Positions 43,162 to 60,548 are shown, counted from the first letter of the stretch. The stretch is DNA of 64,000 nt from Neophaeotheca triangularis (GCA_054600435.1 BAAIJX010000004.1:620001-684000), one strand, 5' to 3'. Translations and numbers: made by a program. Notes: a model not told the origin generated them from the sequence alone.

Positions 43162-44263
43162 TTTGCCGGATGGGTGGTTGTCATGCTTGTGTCGAGGAGG
43201 TGTGGTAAGAGGCTGGCTATCCAGGGGTGCTGGTTGGCGACATGAAGTGAAGTTGCCCGATGAAAACGACGTATGGTTTTTTTGATGGGGTGTTTGATTT
43301 TGGCGTGCTGACTGTAGTGTCGCGGAAATTGAGAGGACTTTGGGAGGTTGGTGACGTTCCAAGGGTGGAAGGAATTCAAATGAGATGGTAGATGTTGAGC
43401 TAATCAATCCGTTACACGATAATGTAAGGGCAAGAGGACATTGAAGAGCAGGAATCGTGAATCATGTACAAGGTCTGCGAAGCGGCGATTTAGGTTGTAC
43501 TCCTGGTGTCATCATTACTCTTCAAACCTCCTGGACAGGGCAGCCTTCTGCGTAGCAGCTGGAAGAAACTCCGTTCCCAGACGTGGCCCAAAGCTTTTTG
43601 GGAAAATGGATGTCCTCATTGATTGTTCTCGGCATGCTCGGCGTGGGCGCTTGCCCGTGCGCTACCTTCAACCTGTTCAGGACAATGGGCCACTCGTCGT
43701 CGGAGACGATCCTGGGGCGTCGTGAGGAGTGGACTGGCTGGGTGATCAGTATGCACATTCTGCTCTAATCACGGAGCCAAAAGTTGTCGCAGTCGACGTC
43801 CGAGCCATGGGCGTAAAGCGAAGACTGGTGGATTGTCTTGCATCGAGATACCGTTACCGGCGGTAGCAAATTTGTGTCCGAGAATGCGTTTGGCGAACAC
43901 TACACGTGGTGGAAGAGTCTGAGATACTCTCGCGACAAACCAAGGGAGAGGATAGGAGACGACACCAACATCAGAGATATGTTGCTCGCATCAAACATAC
44001 AAGGAGCATGGTAGTACTGTCCTTCGACGATTCAACATAGGGTAGCCGCAACGTAATAGTTGGATTTGATGGTTATGCTAACGTGCTTATTCTCCGTTAA
44101 AAGCCACCACAGCAAAAGTATGTACAATAAAAGGAAAGAGAGAACGAGACCACATCCGATCCTCGAGAATAAGTAAGAAAGAAAAAGAACAAAAGATATC
44201 TCCTCTCATCCCCTCTCATCTCATTTCCACGACGTTCCCATCATATCCCCAACTTCAATCTCT

Positions 44264-45919
44264 TCAACCGTGGTGCTGGCCACGACCGCCCTCATGGTGC
44301 TGGCTCTTGCCACTCCACTTGCCGTTGCCGTTGCCGTTCCACCTGCCACCACGGCCGCCGTTGCCGCCGTAGCTGGTGCCGTTGCGCTGGCCCTGGTGCT
44401 CGCCCTTGTAGCCGCCGCGGCCCTCGCGCCACATGGTCTCAGTCACGGTGACGGTGGCTTGGGGTGGGCAGACGTCGCCGGCTGGGGGGGCGGTCATCTC
44501 GGGGGCGGGCGTGGTGACGGTCTCAACAGGCTTGGTGTTGTCAGGCTTGGTGTAAGCCGGGGGCTGGGTGTTCTCGGCGGGCTTGGTGTCGTCAGGCTTG
44601 GTGTAAGCCGGGGGCTGAGTGTTCTCGACGGGCTTGGTGTTGTCAGGCTTGGTGTAAGCCGGGGGCTGAGTGTTCTCGGCGGGCTTAGTGTTGTCAGGCT
44701 TGGTGTAAGCCGGAGGCTGAGTGTTCTCGGCGGGCTTAGTGTTGTCAGGCTTGGTGTAGGCAGGCTGAGTCTCAACAGGCTTGGTGTTGTCAGGCTTAGT
44801 GTAAGCTGGGGGTTGAGTCTCAGCGGGCTTAGTGTTGTCAGGCTTGGTGTAAGCCGGGGGCTGGGTGTTCTCGGCGGGCTTAGTGTTGTCAGGCTTGGTG
44901 TAAGCCGGGGGCTGAGTGTTCTCGGCGGGCTTAGTGTTGTCAGGCTTGGTGTAGGCAGGCTGAGTCTCAACAGGCTTGGTGTTGTCAGGCTTAGTGTAAG
45001 CTGGGGGTTGAGTCTCAGCGGGCTTGGTGTTGTCGTAGTCGGTCTTCATGGAGGGCACAACCATGGTGGAGGTAGTGAGACCAGTGCTGACCTTGCCATC
45101 GTCGTTGGTGACAGTGACATCGCAAGTGGTGAGGGTAGTGTACTGAGTAGTGTACACGGTGGCGGTGCCGTTGTTGGGGCCGGGGGTGACAGTGGGCTGC
45201 TCGCCGCCTTGGCCGGGGATGAATGCACCGGGGGTGACAGTGTTGGTACCGTCGTCATTGAAGGGGTTCTCGCCGAGACATTCGGCGAATTCAGAGGCAC
45301 ACGTGGCCCTGTTGGCGTCGGGGGCGCCGCGGCAGGCATCGTAAGCGTCGTAACAGTCGCTCTTGCAACCCGCAACCTCAGAGGAACAGAAGGCCTGGTT
45401 GGCGTTGGGAGCGGTGCGGCATGCGTTGTCGGCATCGACGCAGCTCAGGTCCCCGGTGGTAGTGGGGGCCGGAGGAGCGGACGCGTAGCTTTCAGAAACC
45501 ACGACAGTGGCGGAAGCGGTCTCTTGCTGACCTTGACCAGGGATGAAAGCGCCGGGGGTGACAGTGTTGGTACCGTCGTCATTGAAGGGGTTCTCGCCGA
45601 GGCATTCAGCGAATTCAGAGGCACACGTGGCCCTGTTAGCATCTGGAGCACCACGGCATGCATCATAAGCGTCGTAACAGTCGCTCTTGCAACCCGCAAC
45701 CTCAGAGGAACAGAAGGCCTGGTTAGCGTTGGGAGCGGTGCGGCATGCGTTGTCGGCGTCGACGCAGTTCACGCTACCAGTAGCCGAGGCAGACGGAGCA
45801 GACGAAGAAAGGGTGACGGTGCTGGTAATTTCCGCCGCAGGTGCCGTGGTATCGTAGGCAGCCTGGGGCGCAGCGAGTGCTACGCCGGCGAAAGCGAGGA
45901 TGTACGCTTTGGTGTACAT
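44264..45919 (-). CDS. Secreted Cys-rich, tandem-repeat extracellular or cell-surface protein
   Basis: Signal peptide MYTKAYILAFAGVALA, two 8-Cys modules, Thr-rich linkers, about 10 YTKPDNTKP(A/V)E(N)TQP(P)A repeats and a Gly/Arg/His/Asn-rich tail; strongly C-biased codon usage. Confidence 0.88.
   Translation of the reverse strand: MYTKAYILAFAGVALAAPQAAYDTTAPAAEITSTVTLSSSAPSASATGSVNCVDADNACRTAPNANQAFCSSEVAGCKSDCYDAYDACRGAPDANRATCASEFAECLGENPFNDDGTNTVTPGAFIPGQGQQETASATVVVSESYASAPPAPTTTGDLSCVDADNACRTAPNANQAFCSSEVAGCKSDCYDAYDACRGAPDANRATCASEFAECLGENPFNDDGTNTVTPGAFIPGQGGEQPTVTPGPNNGTATVYTTQYTTLTTCDVTVTNDDGKVSTGLTTSTMVVPSMKTDYDNTKPAETQPPAYTKPDNTKPVETQPAYTKPDNTKPAENTQPPAYTKPDNTKPAENTQPPAYTKPDNTKPAETQPPAYTKPDNTKPVETQPAYTKPDNTKPAENTQPPAYTKPDNTKPAENTQPPAYTKPDNTKPVENTQPPAYTKPDDTKPAENTQPPAYTKPDNTKPVETVTTPAPEMTAPPAGDVCPPQATVTVTETMWREGRGGYKGEHQGQRNGTSYGGNGGRGGRWNGNGNGKWSGKSQHHEGGRGQHHG
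44520..45035 (-). repeat. Coding minisatellite with 45/48/51-nt units, about 10.5 copies
   Basis: Recurrent gtgttgtcaggcttggtgtaagccggggg on the + strand; a 195-nt four-unit block occurs twice. Confidence 0.95.
45208..45766 (-). repeat. Direct internal duplication (about 235 nt, offset 324 nt) encoding the 8-Cys module
   Basis: 45208-45442 and 45532-45766 encode the identical peptide CVDADNAC..PGAFIPGQG with only synonymous differences. Confidence 0.95.
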
Positions 45920-48747
45920 GGTGGTGGTGGTGGTGGTGGTTAGATTAGGGAAACGAAGGACTGAGGCCCGAGGTGGAAGGGCGAAAAAGAGTTATAAAAT
46001 GCGCAAGCAGTTTCGAGATGACGAGAGGAGCGAGTGTGGTTAGAGAATGGTGAGAATTGAGAAAGACGATCCTACCTTGTTAGATATATATTTGCTCTGT
46101 TCGCCCAGAATAGCTTTGGAGTGCCGCGTCCAGGGATGCATATGGGATGTGTAAAGTCATGAAAGCTCGTATATCCCCAGTAATACGGAGAGACGATCAT
46201 GCAGGCAAGGCCGCAGGGGTACGTGAGCCAGCAACAGATTCGACGTGAAGGCAAAAGGCGCAGGACGCATCTCCGCGATTTCGAATCCATTGTGGAGCAA
46301 AGAGATCGTTTGGGAAGGCGGCAAGTCGGTCACGGTCTGGAATAGGCCCAGTCGAGTGGATGTGGGTGGACACCCACGGGGGGAACTCGAAGTCCCGTCT
46401 AGAAGATTTTGCTAGAGTTTGCTAGAGTCGAGGCTCGCGCGAGGTGGTACTGAGAGACTTGACATCGAGGAGGACAGTTGCCAAGGGCGGGTGCCCTGGA
46501 TTGCACCCGTCGAATCGAGAGCTCAATAACAGCCGTTGGCCGCGAGGCACGAAATCTACTGGATCGTTTCCAGGAAGATGCCTGTTGATGACCGGTAGAC
46601 GACGTAGGTGGTGACTTTCTTGCCCTTTCTAGACGAGTCTTAAGCTCGTAATCCCAAGAAGCTCGACGTTGCGGCAAGTCTTGTTATACTTTTGGTTTGT
46701 TTTCAAGCTGTGAACTCGGTAGCTAGCGTCCACTTGTGCCGATCTCGTACCCGGCTCGCCGGATGGCGAAATCAGGTCAATGGCAGGGACAGGCCTGGAC
46801 GACGAGGCATCTCTATGGATGGCCAAGCGACTTGCCCACGCAGATGGTAGGATGTTGACAGTATGGATTCAGATCTTCGAGGATGACCGGACTCCGTTGG
46901 CATTGATCAGACACGCTCGTCACGCGTGCCTTTAGGCGACGGCGTCGTCGCTCCAGCAGAAGGAAAAACGGCACTTTGCTAGCTAGCAAAAATACGTCAA
47001 GTGCGCAGTAGCAGCAACTTAGGCGGATGAGCGGGAACGCAGGCGACGAATGCCCATTGTGGGTGATGGAAATAGCTCAAGCATGCTTCCGCGCTCGATT
47101 GAATTCGACTGGTTTTCCCAGACCCGACGTTTGTACGTAAGCCCCGTTGCGTTCCAGACTTGAGAAGAAAAGGTCAAAGGCTAACAGAGGGCGGGTCGGG
47201 TCAGCAAGCTGCAAGCCACATGGTCTATTTTGGACGGGGTTGACGGCACGCCGCGTGCGCAAGGCTGTGTCCTGAGACTCCTGTCAGTGTCGGAACTAGG
47301 GGTTGTGATTGTTATATGCCATGTCAGACAATGCATGTCCTCCAGGTACCATCTGTGACGCTATGAGGCTACGAAATGTGTTATCGGTAGGAGAGGTAAG
47401 GGTGTCTTGTCAACAGCTGGGCACGTTACATTACGCACCTCACCTACCTAATAAGGTACCGTAGGTAATATTGGATCTGTTTGGTGAAGTCAATTTAAAC
47501 TTTCACCCACATTTCCGCATTAGGTACCTTACGTCAGCTCCAACTTCAACTTCAATCTGAAACACCAACGCTAACTCTAACCCTACCTCCTACGCACACG
47601 GTACACCTCACGTTTTCCGGCCACATCAATGATGGATCATTTATCAAAGACCTCATCTACCTCCGGTGTCTGCCCATTTACTAATGTAAATCTTCAACTT
47701 GTTAAAACTGACGCATTACCAACCCTATCCTATAACCACCTGTTCACTAGCCATGTAGCGTACGTAGTAGCTTGACTCGACAAAGCCAAACTTCAGACCC
47801 TTGGCCTAACTATTCTCCAAGTCCGCCCGTCGCGCTCCCCAAGCCAGTCCCAACGTAAAGGAGTGAGGATTATTACAGCCACCAGAACCCCAGGAAGTAG
47901 ATGCAGATCTTGTCCCCAGCCAGCCAGCACCATACCAAACCAAGTCATACCCAATCACCTTATTCCTAAAGCAAGCACCAGTAAGTCCCCCAAAACTGGA
48001 GAGAGACCTACCCCACCCCAAAAACAGCCAAAACTCAATTCCAAACCCAACCCTCCCTATACAGCGCCCTCAAGGCTCGCATCTACCATCTCAACAAAAG
48101 CTCTCGAGCTCCCAAAACACCGAAAGTTTCGACAAAAGACAGGTGCTCGGTCTTATAGTACATAGCGAGAAAACAGCAGCTTCGAACGCCTTCGCTAAAG
48201 ATGTCGTGCTGCGAGCAATCAAGAAGCCGCCCCCCCCCCCTCTTAGGGCAGCTGGGGAGATGAGATAGATGTTCGGAAGTAGTAACAATGCTCAGGCGTC
48301 GTGTCCATGTCGTTGTTTATGCGCTATGCGCCGTCGTCATCCCACGCCACTCCAGCTCCCATGGCCAAGGTAGGTAGGTAGGTAGGTGGGTAGCTCAGAC
48401 GGGGGAAAATGTCACCCAGACTCGACCGAAAATGCCCTCTCCATTCCCTACCGCTCCATTGCATAACATGGCCGCAACCGCAAACAGCAAATCCAGGGTC
48501 CGACCGCGCCAACCCCTTTAGAAAAACAGTCTCTACATCCCGGGCCCCGGAATCTAAACCCTCCCAGACCCTGACCCCTAAAAGCCCTTGCAAACCCCAT
48601 CACCCCCCGCCTGCCATTCCAAACCCACGCCTCGCTGGACCCCGCCGGCCCCTTAGCCTCCTAACTCTCACGCACCCACAAGAAAAAACAAAGGATGCAG
48701 CAGTCCCCACTAACCCCCCTCCCGTAGTCCGAATAAAAAGAAACCCC

Positions 48748-55804: not shown

Positions 55805-57382
55805 CTACGTCCACTTATCAATCTTCATCGTGCCCGTCTCATTCAACGCCTTGTGCATATCAAAAGCATTCCACAGCAAATGCGGCTCATGGCCCCAACC
55901 CTTCTTCATACACTCAAAATCCGCCTTATCCAAATAACCCGTCAAAATATCACGGTACTCGGGATGAACACACTTGTCCACAATCACGCGCGCTCTCTCT
56001 CGGGGACTCAACCCTCTAACGTCCGCGAGGCCTTGCTCAGTCACGACGACATCGAGGTCGTGTTCCGTCTGATCGACGTGTGTGCACATGGGTACAATGG
56101 TGCTGACGCCCGTGGGGTCGGTCTTGGAGGGCCGCGTGGAGGGTGTGTGCATGATGCTGTATTTCGAAGATCGGAGGAAGTCGGCAGACCCGCCGAGGCC
56201 GTTGAGCATGCGGCTGCCCATGACGCAGGTGCTGTTGGCGTGGGCGTAGAGGTCGACTTCGACGGGCGTGTTCATGCCGATGCAGCCGAGGCGGCGGATG
56301 ATTTCGGGAGAGTTGGAAACTTGTTGCGAGCGCAGGAGGAGCTTGGGTGCGTAGCGTTCCCAGTTGTCGTAGAAGCGTTTGAAACCGTCTGGGGAGAAGC
56401 GGATCGAGGTTGCCGTGGCGAAGTCGAGGTTGCCGCTGTCGAAGAGGTCGAGAAAGCTGTCCTGGAGGACTTCGGTCCAGACTTTGAGGTTCTTGAAGTC
56501 GGCGCCGCCGCTGGCGAGACCACCTACGACTGCGTTCGCGATGTTGCCAATGCCGGATTGGATGGGGAGTAGGTTTTTGGGGAGGCGTCCGCGGGAGACT
56601 TCGTGTTGGAGGAATTCGATCAGGTTGGTGGCAATGGCTCGGGAAGCGTCGTCTTCGGGCGCGTTGGGCTGGGTCTGGTCGGGGTAGTCAGACTCAACGA
56701 GTGCGACGACCTTCTCGGGGTCAATGGGGATGTGCGGGGTGCCTATTCTGTCTTCGGGAGACATAATGAGGTACGGCTTGCGGTTCGGGGGGAGATCGGT
56801 CATGGTGATGTCATGAAGGCCTTCGAAAGAAGGCGCGGCAGTATTGCATTCAATGACAATCTTGTCGGCCATTTGGATGATTTCTGGGGAAGCACCAACA
56901 GAGGCACCAGGAATGATGCCGCCGTCTTCGGTAATGGCGGAGGCTTCAACAATCGCTACGTCTAGTCGGTTGTTGGCCTTCTCGCGTGTGTAGTAGCCGT
57001 ACATCAGATCGACCGGGAACATAGACAAGTGCTTGTCGAAGAACTTGATGTTGCCGTTGTTGATACCCTTGGCGATTTCCTTGCCAACTTGGTGAGGACT
57101 GCGGCGCTCAATCATGTTGTTGCGTGCCCAGCGGTTCTCCGTCTCCGCGCCAGAGGAAGCTCCGACGAAGAGGTTGTACTTGAGCTTGCCTTGGAGGTTG
57201 TTCTTCTCGACATGCTCGGCGAGGGCAATGGGGACCTTTTTGGGGTAGCCTACGCCAGTGAAACCGGACCAGCCGATGTAGGAGTTGTGCGGGAAAAGGT
57301 CGATCAGGTCTTCGGCCTTGCACAGCTTGTTGAGGTAGGAGGGGCGGCGCACACGCGACTTGAGCAATGCGGAGGCGGCCAT
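55805..57382 (-). CDS. ACH1: Acetyl-CoA hydrolase / CoA-transferase
   Basis: [48 protein letters not shown] and [10 protein letters not shown]; intronless, 525 aa. Confidence 0.96.
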
Positions 57383-58629
57383 GATGGTTAGAGGAGCTCG
57401 GAGGCGGGCTTGACCTGCTCTTCTAAACGACCTATTCGCGAGTGTGGTGGAAAGAAGAGGGAAAAGGGAAGACGATCAGACAAACAAGAAGAAAGTAGAG
57501 ACAGAAGTGGTGTGATCCGCCCTTGGCTCGTCATAACAATGCCCGCTTATCACCTGTTGTCGGTTAAGCAGGACGTGGAACGATATCTAGTCATGCCGGA
57601 CGAATGGAAGCGAGGACCATGACGCAGTTGGCACGGCAGAATCATGGGTGTCAACACATCCCATGATCCTCGCGCTGACTCCGGAGCGATCCATTCAATT
57701 AGCTTGTAAAGTTGTAACATTCTGGAGGTTGTTGTGGAGTTTTTCCCGAAAATGTTGTTTAGCGGTGGAGCTCCCAAGAGGTCTGCTTCAGACTTCAGCC
57801 AAGCGGTGACGTTGGCTGCCACGTGCTTTCGCGTTTGCGGCCGGAAGTCGGAGATGTACCTTGACCATCTTATCTTATCTTATCTAAAACATCGCCTGAT
57901 GACTGCTTGACTCCATCCCATCGTTGTCTAGAGGCATGCCTTTTTAATCCCCTGACATACTGTATCAACTTGACGAGGGTACATTATGGACTATTATCCC
58001 CGGCCTCGATGGCTTTGTCCGCTTCTAGCACGTAGTTAACCGCAAACCTCTATGCTCTTCTAAATGACATGTAGCCTCTAACACGAACCCGGACTCAACG
58101 TTCTCAGCAGCCCGAGACATACATACACTGCCTCACCTCAACTAGTCTCCTTCCGCCACTTCTAATCTGACCATCGTTTCGCAAACTAGAAGGCGAACCG
58201 TCCGAGGAGGACGAACTCTAGGAGGTATGAGATGGCCGTCAGACCAAGGTAGTGCGCGTCGTTCAGCTTAACAGTCGGCACGGATATCGGCGAGCAGAAT
58301 AACAAGATTCGCTCCTTTGGTTCCTCGAGTGCAGTCCTGATGATTTCAACAGTGAAAGGGAGCCGGTGTGACCTCACACCACTTCATTGCCGGAAGCAGG
58401 CTCTATCTAAGCGGGGGCGGAGATGCGCCTCCCCGGCGTGGACTCATAAGTTCTGGAGGCGATACGGCCTTGTCTTCATTCTCGAATGTCTGCCCTTGAG
58501 AGCCGTCGAGCTAGGAGCTGGATGATCATTAGTTTGTGTGCGTCGTGCTGCGTGCATGCCTCTGAATAGACAAGGACGGTATATTTAGATAAGTTATGAA
58601 AATCGGAGTCGTCCGCGCGGCCGGTGGGA

Positions 58630-58868
58630 AAAGAAGAAAAAAAAGGAAAAAAAAAAGAAAAAAAGAGGAAAAGCAAAAAGAAACTCCCAATGGGAGAAGA
58701 AACCACTTAGCAGCAACCGCACCCGAAGGCTGGTTTGCTTTTGCCAAGTGTCATAGAGCTGGGATTCGAACCGCAGTCTTATCTATACCTGGAGAATGGA
58801 ATCTAAGGGGAGTCAGCGAAAGGGGAACGGTCTGTGTGGTTACCAGCCATTAGACCATTGTAATTAAT
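58630..58868 (-). ncRNA. Candidate Pol III-type structured ncRNA or tRNA-derived element (unidentified)
   Basis: A box TGGTCTAATGG (58857-58847), B box GGTTCGAATCCC (58772-58761), C(UUCG)G-capped hairpin (58750-58704), small hairpin (58696-58684) and oligo-T tracts (58683-58630). It does not fold as a cloverleaf. Confidence 0.5.
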
Positions 58869-59789
58869 TCAAGTTTGTTGGGAGGGCGTGTTCATTCCTA
58901 CGTAGTTGGTTTGCGACAGGTTCAATATATATAGTCTGAATACTTTCCCCCAGGAGATACCCATGGATCGCCTATGACTTTGGTGATGGATGAGTGGGTG
59001 CATTACCTGAGGCGGCCTCCTTTTGATAGAGGACTTACAAACAGCGTGTGAAGGTCGTTCTGAGTTCTTTCACATATTTCTCAGCAGTCACTTGTTATGA
59101 ATATCGCGACAGTTTTCTACAACACAGTCCCTTGGGCAGCAAGCACAGGGAGAAAACTTCGAATAGTGTTTCAGCGATTCTTTCTTCTATCAAGCGATAG
59201 CAGCGTAGGGCGTTTATATATTCACGGCGGATAACGGAGCACGGAGCACGTAGCTCGCAGCGCATCCGCTCAGTACTGCTAGTTGCACACCTGGGCCACG
59301 GCGTTGTGTTTGAGGAAGGTAAATAACACAGTCACCGACACTGACGAGTAAGCGAGAGATCCGGAGAAGACGATGGCTTTTTCTAAGTACTTAACTCGCT
59401 TGTACCCAATCCTCCTAGAACACTGACTTCGGTTCACTTAAACAAAGACCTAGATTCCCGGCCTCCGTTTGCATAGATCAAGTGCAGCCCTCTTGAACAA
59501 GCACGTCGATAGCGCTCTTCGAAAGGCCACGCGTATTCCAGGAAGTGTCGGCCGGGCCCAGAAGCAAGAACAAGCGTAAGTGAAAGCTCTTTTACCCTTC
59601 CAACCACTTTTTCATCACTTCAAAGCCTGCATCAGGATAGCCCATAGCGTGTAAAGCCCTGCGAGAACCATCTCAAATTCCATCCGCTAGATTCCGACAT
59701 TCTCACTGCCAGTCACGGAGCGGTCCTGCGAACTCTGAGTCTCTGCCATTCCATTCCAACCCACCCCCGATATAACAGCCTCGGTCAAG

Positions 59790-60548
59790 ATGGCCATCGA
59801 CACTTCCGCTAGCGCTACCGACAAGCTCTTTAAGATTTTCGAGCTCACGGAGCATCTCTTCACCTACTTCGAGCCTAAAGACCTCTTACTCGCCACCCGC
59901 ATCAATACTACTGCCCGCGGTGTCATTCAGAATTCTCTGAAGCTTAGGGTGAAGCTGGTTCTGGCGAAGCCGAGGACACATAGACCAGCATGTTTCAGCA
60001 CTGACGACGATTCCGAGCCTGCTGGTACTGGCGGTACAACTTCTCAAACCAGCGGTGGTCAAGACGCCCTTTCGAATAGCAACCCGGGAAGCGATTCAGA
60101 GAGCCCGGTCAATCCCCTCATTTTGCGAACAGCAACAGTGTCTCAAACAGAACTCGATGACATTGTTCTTGTCAACACGCACGTGCACGGCGATCTCGGA
60201 AAAGCACTGAGACTGACGCTCCCGGCAACAGTGTACAAGATCATCCCCTCACTGAAAGTGATCCAAGACACCTCCAGAGATTGTATCTCTCCCAGCTGCA
60301 CCCTCATGTTCCTTCAACCCTCGGCGCACGCACAGGGCGTCAAGTTTGCCATTTGCGTCGCGATTGGCTCTCGCTGGTATGCGATCCGAGGCTCTTACTA
60401 TGCTGAGTCTGCTTTGAGATGCGGAGAAGTCCTCGAAGCGATCCAAGCACGCCTTGACTGTGTCTTGCCCAATCTCAACGAGGAGCAATTGCGCAAGGTG
60501 CGCTGCTACTTGTGGTTTCACGACTCTCGCCGAGGCATGGGTCAATGA
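59790..60548 (+). CDS. F-box-like fungal protein
   Basis: KLFKIFELTEHLFTYFEPKDLLLATRIN..IQNSLKLRVKL, VNPLIL and SCTLMFLQP. Confidence 0.75.
   Translation: MAIDTSASATDKLFKIFELTEHLFTYFEPKDLLLATRINTTARGVIQNSLKLRVKLVLAKPRTHRPACFSTDDDSEPAGTGGTTSQTSGGQDALSNSNPGSDSESPVNPLILRTATVSQTELDDIVLVNTHVHGDLGKALRLTLPATVYKIIPSLKVIQDTSRDCISPSCTLMFLQPSAHAQGVKFAICVAIGSRWYAIRGSYYAESALRCGEVLEAIQARLDCVLPNLNEEQLRKVRCYLWFHDSRRGMGQ

Follow-up and report, generated by a model that had tools for sequence, protein, structure and literature searches.

A dispersed repeat with tRNA-like Pol III boxes, a UUCG hairpin and a T-rich tail upstream of an ACH1-type gene, probably a tRNA-derived SINE

What kind of element combines internal Pol III boxes, a UUCG hairpin and long T tracts without being a tRNA gene? 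The question is raised by a locus on the minus strand of a 64,000-nt stretch of Neophaeotheca triangularis DNA, which was analyzed as a whole and is called the window here; all positions are counted from its first nucleotide. The original prediction, made for 58630-58868, was headed as an unannotated structured RNA, and offered three options for it: an undescribed small ncRNA, a tRNA-like leader of a hairpin RNA, or a short tRNA-derived SINE. The analysis described below leads to the last of these. The element belongs to a small repeat family dispersed in the genome and is probably a tRNA-derived SINE, a type of non-autonomous non-LTR retroposon.

Genes are densely packed in this fungal window, which encodes Fungal_trans domains, MCM, Glu/Gln-tRNA synthetase and other families. 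As had been predicted, the element is housed in a gene-free gap of 2.4 kb between two ORFs (57383-59789). One border is formed by an acetyl-CoA hydrolase (ACH1-type) ORF on the minus strand (55805-57382; Pfam E 1.7e-45 and 1.9e-41), and the element lies 1.25 kb upstream of its ATG. The other border is an ORF starting at 59790, and the intergenic region is divergent. The gap contains six small ORFs, for which Pfam returned nothing above the cut-off. A 61-aa ORF on the plus strand (58340-58522), about 100 nt from the tail of the element, showed a sub-threshold match to a Tc5 transposase DNA-binding domain (PF03221, E 0.028, 14.8 bits compared to a cut-off of 22.2); the match is probably noise and could be a transposase relic. 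Elsewhere in the window two open frames, 588 aa on the plus strand (44177-45943) and 575 aa on the minus strand (44264-45991), overlap almost wholly, and both are without Pfam match at an E limit of 1e-5.

Motifs, hairpins and comparison with known RNA classes

Read in the direction of the minus strand, the element starts with an A-box-like motif, TGGTCTAATGG (58857-58847), recognized by sequence reading. Nine of its eleven positions agree, by our own count, with the A-box consensus TRGCNNAGTGG. Folding places this motif within a 5' hairpin (58859-58826), which is not a D arm. The A box lies upstream of an exact B box, GGTTCGAATCC (58772-58762), at a spacing of 74 nt. The B box itself is situated inside a T-arm-like hairpin (58787-58752) found by sequence and folding and closed by TATAGA/TCTATG; according to sequence reading, the T stem pairs only with C58773 bulged out. 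Sequence and folding also define a 47-nt hairpin (58750-58704) with a C(UUCG)G loop at 58728-58723. It is followed by a small, terminator-shaped hairpin, CTCCC-ATT-GGGAG (58696-58684), which passes directly into TTTCTTTTT. The T-rich pyrimidine tail (58683-58629) consists of pyrimidines at 54 of 55 nt and contains T runs of 5, 4, 7, 10, 8 and 4. All motifs of the original prediction could thus be located on the minus strand at the places given for them.

The exact B box and the A/B pair are beyond chance. For an exact B box the expectation per 64-kb window is 0.05, with 5 of 100 shuffles containing one, and it rises to 1.05 if one mismatch is allowed; an A box followed by a B box 60-90 nt on occurred in none of 100 shuffles. 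Among the four hairpins, the 47-nt hairpin alone clearly beats shuffled sequence (-20.5 kcal/mol, z -3.15, 1 of 200 shuffles as good). The other three are marginal, with z -1.84 for the small hairpin, z -1.79 for the 5' hairpin (-9.7 kcal/mol, 10 of 200 shuffles fold equally well) and z -0.89 for the T-arm-like hairpin, which is without stability on its own. No better folding than in shuffles was obtained for the whole unit either (z -0.29 for 239 nt and z -0.39 for 206 nt).

A tRNA gene, the form with a long intron included, was rejected, as no cloverleaf was returned by ARAGORN or by the Rfam tRNA model RF00005. ARAGORN called no tRNA gene in the window, nor did it call one in 58500-59200 when introns were allowed and at the default pseudogene setting. 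Thresholds lowered to 80% or less resulted in implausible calls only, for example a 'tRNA-Glu' with a 142-nt intron. The Rfam tRNA model was unmatched even at E up to 10, in accordance with the earlier observation that acceptor and anticodon arms are absent. The A box, the exact B box and the T-loop-like hairpin are shared with tRNA genes and pseudogenes, whereas the acceptor, D and anticodon stems are lacking.

Searching the whole window against Rfam 15 gave 0 matches at the gathering score. The local search of 58300-59200 returned two matches, Ocean-V (E 1.3) and mir-1913 (E 8.8), both at chance level and far below their cut-offs. No curated family was thus matched, those of snRNA, SRP and RNase P/MRP and the Afu_ families included. 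A coding explanation was likewise rejected: the repeat, about 250-490 bp long, has stop codons in all six frames, and the six small ORFs of the gap are without Pfam match. Exact-match scans of metagenomes for a 21-nt segment of the 3' module and for 20 nt beginning at the B box yielded 0 matches each, a weakly informative result, and a 15-nt stretch at the B box had no match in the literature.

Copies of the element in two DNA runs

Public runs were sought for words of 58400-59000, and 17 contained some of them. The word fraction was 0.80 in run X1 and 0.45 in run X2, both of DNA and under one organism label, and at most 0.07 in all other runs. Contigs of X1, X2, X18 and the RNA run X3 were then aligned to 56800-60300 at a likeness of at least 80%. 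The RNA run contributed one 40-nt low-complexity piece at 57455-57494 and none on the element, which allows no verdict on expression.

In both DNA runs the alignments pile up over the element. The summed contig depth, which is not equal to the true copy number and is used here as an order of magnitude only, was about 128 in the flanks in X1 and rose to 2969 at 58672-58788, 1362 at 58789-58905 and 487 at 58906-59022. In X2 it was about 76-115 in the flanks and 2780, 1457 and 741 over the same three bins. Over 58672-59022 this corresponds to 4-23 times the baseline in the two runs, and to 10-23 times for the core unit, although the peak may be raised by low-complexity, purine-rich matches next to the tail. 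Depth is at baseline on both sides of the element and is back at baseline from 59023. The contigs of the locus itself stop at 58702 and resume at 58925, a break of the kind that assembly graphs show at repeats.

Individual copies can be distinguished as well. At least four other long contigs of X1 (5310, 32587, 86925 and 12358 nt) end in the element with 80-91% likeness. Their end matches cover 58730-58880, 58753-58878, 58762-58864 and 58835-58946, with 7-17 mismatches and 4-13 gap positions each. Most other copies match the stretch 58880-58684 on the minus strand, the core repeated unit, which comprises the tRNA-like head, a spacer and the 3' hairpins; contigs matching this unit also include one at 58723-58851, and 5-17 mismatches plus gaps are found across the copies. 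The 51 aligned contigs of X1 are distributed over the whole range of likeness (19 at 99% or more, 13 at 95-99%, 8 at 90-95% and 11 under 90%), and a contig of 112 nt with doubled depth agrees with 58834-58945 at every position. Within the 64-kb window itself, blastn at word size 7 detected no second copy or LTR, the only matches having E of 0.7 or more.

The element is therefore a multi-copy dispersed repeat of the same genome. Many dispersed copies had been named beforehand as the mark of a SINE, and such copies are what the contig depth and the at least four other long contigs reveal. With a dispersed multi-copy state, a unique ncRNA and a tRNA-like leader lose most of their support, and the short tRNA-derived SINE is the one of the three original options that stands. 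The heading of an unannotated structured RNA was accordingly too strong for what is most likely a mobile-element copy.

The depth is not uniform along the unit. Per-site values in X1 were 260 at 58981, 363 at 58887, 850-986 at 58794-58828 and 523 at 58752; together with the bin mean of 2969 they imply about 33 times the baseline or more over 58672-58742. Depth thus falls toward the 5' end of the minus strand in three tiers (about 33-fold or more, about 4-10-fold and 1-3-fold), with breaks at 58742, about 58880 and 58946. Expressed as loci, and to an order of magnitude, the 3' 60-70 nt with the tail would be present in tens, the tRNA-like part in about 4-8, and the sequence 5' of 58880 in 1-3. 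Two contigs of X1 and three of X2 match only up to 58742 and then continue in mutually unlike sequence. The gradient is the pattern of 5' truncation or of a shared LINE-type 3' module. The part of highest depth, 58672-58742, which takes in the 3' half of the 47-nt hairpin, by far exceeds the 4-8 times baseline of the tRNA-like part. This is a hint that a more abundant element, for instance a LINE, could have the 3' module in common with the repeat.

Toward the 5' side, one X2 copy enters unlike sequence beyond 58878, 21 nt ahead of the A box; two X2 contigs part from the locus jointly at 58946, and one of X1 does so at 59019. The 5' extension defined by the contig alignment (59019-58881, minus strand) is common to only 1-3 other copies and represents either a longer subfamily or an older repeat adjoining the element. 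Inside the unit, the listed copies carry deletions of 1-5 nt at 58752, 58794-58798 and 58828. The first of these, the loss of G58752, accounts for most of the depth in X2 (565 of 965) and for 123 of 523 in X1. Another X2 copy keeps the CTCC/GGAG stem with a different loop and has, before 58693, a tract that is A-rich on the plus strand, from which it follows that the tail belongs to the repeat. Since the listed tRNA-like copies are only 80-91% alike, the head family may be old and inactive.

Run X2, from a second strain, carries the element at the same place, in a contig covering 58177-58748 with 23 gap positions. Variability of the tail was observed in two comparisons, namely with one other copy and with this X2 locus. 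The unique flanks of X2 and the window are about 3% apart (9 differences in 58301-58591 and 4 in 59027-59139), and 1 difference was among those listed in 583 nt of ACH1 coding sequence; these counts are partial, with 108 further differences unlisted. The intergenic flanks look neutral between the strains. X18, which bears the same organism label, matched only 57105-57355, i.e. 251 nt of ACH1 coding sequence, at 80% identity with 50 differences, and gave no match to the intergenic region at a likeness of at least 80%. Either the match is to a paralogue, or the one label covers diverged lineages.

Ends of the unit and competing readings

For the short form of the element, from about 58880 to about 58629, no flanking direct repeat of at least 6 nt exact or at least 8 nt with one mismatch was found. 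The best candidate, TCCCAAC/TCCCACC, was picked by eye and is unconvincing as a target-site duplication. A repeat search at longer range revealed a 13-nt direct repeat on the minus strand, consisting of CGATATTCATAAC upstream (59106-59094) and CGATTTTCATAAC downstream (58605-58593), identical at 12 of 13 positions and with the consensus CGAT(A/T)TTCATAAC. It brackets 488 bp, in which the element and its 5' extension are included along with the 23 non-T bases that follow the tail (58628-58606). When the same geometry was placed at random in the window 20000 times, 480 placements (2.4%) gave a repeat of such quality. The pair may be the target-site duplication of a 488-bp composite retrocopy, or chance, and is suggestive only. 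In a 488-bp unit the A box would lie about 237 nt inside the 5' end, a greater distance than a Pol III start allows. The baseline depth over 59023-59093, according to which no other copy shares that part, is a further conflict. As to the other copies, one stops at 58878 and thus close to the A box, and others match to 58946 or 59019.

A rival reading takes the element for the 5'-truncated 3' end of a LINE, or for a chimera formed by template switching from a LINE/SINE 3' module, a tRNA-like RNA and a 5' piece, which would have been inserted as one 488-bp unit. The stepwise decrease of depth toward the 5' end in three tiers and the direct repeat around the entire 488 bp point in this direction, and fungal chimeras of WEIRD, Mg-SINE and MGL with flanking repeats of 12-14 bp are described (PMC2104539). 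We regard this origin as rather unlikely, because neither an open frame nor an RT remnant is present in 59093-58690 on either strand, and no copy extends beyond 59019 at a likeness of at least 80%, so that no long parent element is seen. In the window as a whole, no RT domain occurred among the 18 scanned of 55 open frames of at least 180 aa, and no LINE was seen. The direct repeat, given its empirical frequency, may be accidental, and an exact B box with an A box 74 nt upstream is better explained by a tRNA-derived promoter.

Three further readings were weighed. CT-rich tracts are common just upstream of transcription starts in promoters of filamentous fungi. Since the intergenic region is divergent, the motifs might have arisen by chance in a Pol II promoter, with the CT-rich tract as a core-promoter element of ACH1 or of an unannotated transcript. 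This is very improbable: further copies of the sequence, tail included, exist elsewhere in the genome, which largely refutes the reading, and the A/B pair was absent from all 100 shuffles. Moreover, immediately ahead of its ATG, at about 57440-57510 on the minus strand, ACH1 possesses a CT-rich tract of its own, so that the distal T-rich tract 1.25 kb further up is not needed for its expression. Functional Pol III ncRNA genes in several copies, built from a tRNA-like head and a UUCG hairpin and dispersed like tRNA or fungal 5S genes, would agree with the intact exact B box, the terminator-shaped hairpin with its T runs and a 47-nt hairpin far more stable than shuffles. The stem of the small hairpin, kept in one other copy despite a different loop, and the dispersed multi-copy state taken alone are compatible with such genes too. 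They remain improbable in view of copies that, among those listed, differ by 9-20% with internal deletions of 1-5 nt, unlike conserved RNA genes, and that are truncated at differing points. In addition, the T stem is broken by the extra C, the full unit folds no better than shuffles, no Rfam family matches, and the element occurred in none of the RNA runs searched.

Little probability also falls to a solo LTR of a Helenus-type TRIM, whose polypurine tract would be the purine tract, or to a MITE. Helenus LTRs with tRNA-like A/B boxes occur in fungi, and many of them are solo; like the element they are dispersed tRNA-like sequences that are not functional tRNAs (PMC10886601). A purine-rich tract also precedes the repeat on the plus strand, but a polypurine tract would not be kept by a solo LTR. 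Helenus elements have TG...CA ends with 5-bp duplications and are reported from the Basidiomycota only, where they were found only in Pucciniales and a few Agaricomycetes (PMC10886601). The element has neither such ends nor a paired LTR: with ends in 58590-58705 and 58860-59110, 0 TG...CA units with a 4-6-bp duplication were found on either strand, and the 64-kb window contains no second LTR. A solo LTR was rejected on these end features. A MITE could draw on an inverted pair near two candidate ends (58621-58631 and 58944-58954), which is 11 nt long and 82% complementary. This pair is weak, being one of 8 such pairs in 651 nt, no flanking duplication was visible around it by eye, and the depth gradient is one-sided.

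A tRNA-derived SINE and its closest relatives

The preferred reading as a tRNA-derived SINE accounts for an element of three parts, namely a degenerate tRNA-like head without cloverleaf, a 3' hairpin body and a T-rich, microsatellite-like tail. Of the features of a SINE2, A and B boxes at the motif level, dispersed copies, a short non-coding unit and a simple-sequence tail are present. The motifs, the dispersion, the divergence of the copies with indels, the absence of coding capacity and the absence of a tRNA gene or Rfam family are observed, and we infer from here Pol III transcription, retroposition and a LINE partner. TFIIIC would bind the internal boxes, and Pol III would start shortly upstream of the A box. 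Transcription would end in the runs of T downstream of the small hairpin, so that the tail doubles as Pol III terminator. The reverse transcriptase of a partner LINE would recognize the module of 3' hairpin and tail, which is apparently common to many more loci, and target-primed reverse transcription would copy the RNA into new sites. The expected outcome would be 5'-truncated copies, tails of variable length and target-site duplications. One step fits less smoothly, since a Pol III that stops within the first T runs would leave the copying of the long T-rich tail without explanation.

Few SINEs are known from fungi, and they are poorly catalogued. SINEs with T-rich tails have been described as a type, represented by the plant Au-like elements, AFROSINE and Sauria SINE (PMC6007223). 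These have in common with the element a tRNA-related head with Pol III boxes, a short non-coding body, a T-rich tail and dispersed copies. They are known from plants and animals and share their 3' ends with LINEs of the RTE clade, with tails of TTT-TTTTT. In contrast, the tail of the element is 55 nt long and CT-rich, and its target duplication is not clear; the comparison is one of descriptions only.

Among fungi, the tRNA-related AfuSINE2 of Aspergillus fumigatus is similar in several respects. It comprises 140-493 bp in 1-5 copies with degenerate boxes and no cloverleaf, and its insertions lie in gene-rich regions with target duplications of 4-14 bp (PMC5063351). The likeness thus extends to a fungal host, short length, low copy number, degenerate A/B boxes, a head without cloverleaf and the gene-rich setting. 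When the eight printed AfuSINE2 sequences were compared with the element by eye, only a B-box-type motif was common, and the tail of AfuSINE2-1a is (ACT)n compared to the T-rich tract here (PMC5063351). In Magnaporthe, Mg-SINE is described as sharing its 3' end with the LINE MGL and as giving rise to chimeric retrocopies with flanking repeats of 12-14 bp (PMC2104539). With its 5'-truncated copies and its composites with direct repeats, this system is one which the tiered depth and the 13-nt repeat of the element would fit. For the element, in contrast, no LINE was found, the composite reading draws on the depth steps and one direct repeat, and here as well the likeness is one of description.

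A more far-reaching interpretation is that the element belongs to an undescribed and recently active fungal SINE family, with a Pol III head, a hairpin module and a long T-rich tail shared with a partner of about 30 copies or more. We consider this possible, though doubtful. If true, such a T-tailed family would extend a SINE type of plants and animals, and its unusual insertion signature, to fungi.

Independent of this, a false lead is removed, as the locus is no unique structured RNA gene and possibly belongs to an uncatalogued repeat family. In genome annotation, copies of this kind lead to false tRNA-like calls. If bound by Pol III, a repeat situated 1.25 kb upstream of a metabolic gene could affect the chromatin around it, a host function that is purely hypothetical. 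The SINEs of fungi would gain one family, with a tRNA-like head, a T-rich tail and a shared hairpin module, and with it a lead to the LINE partner.
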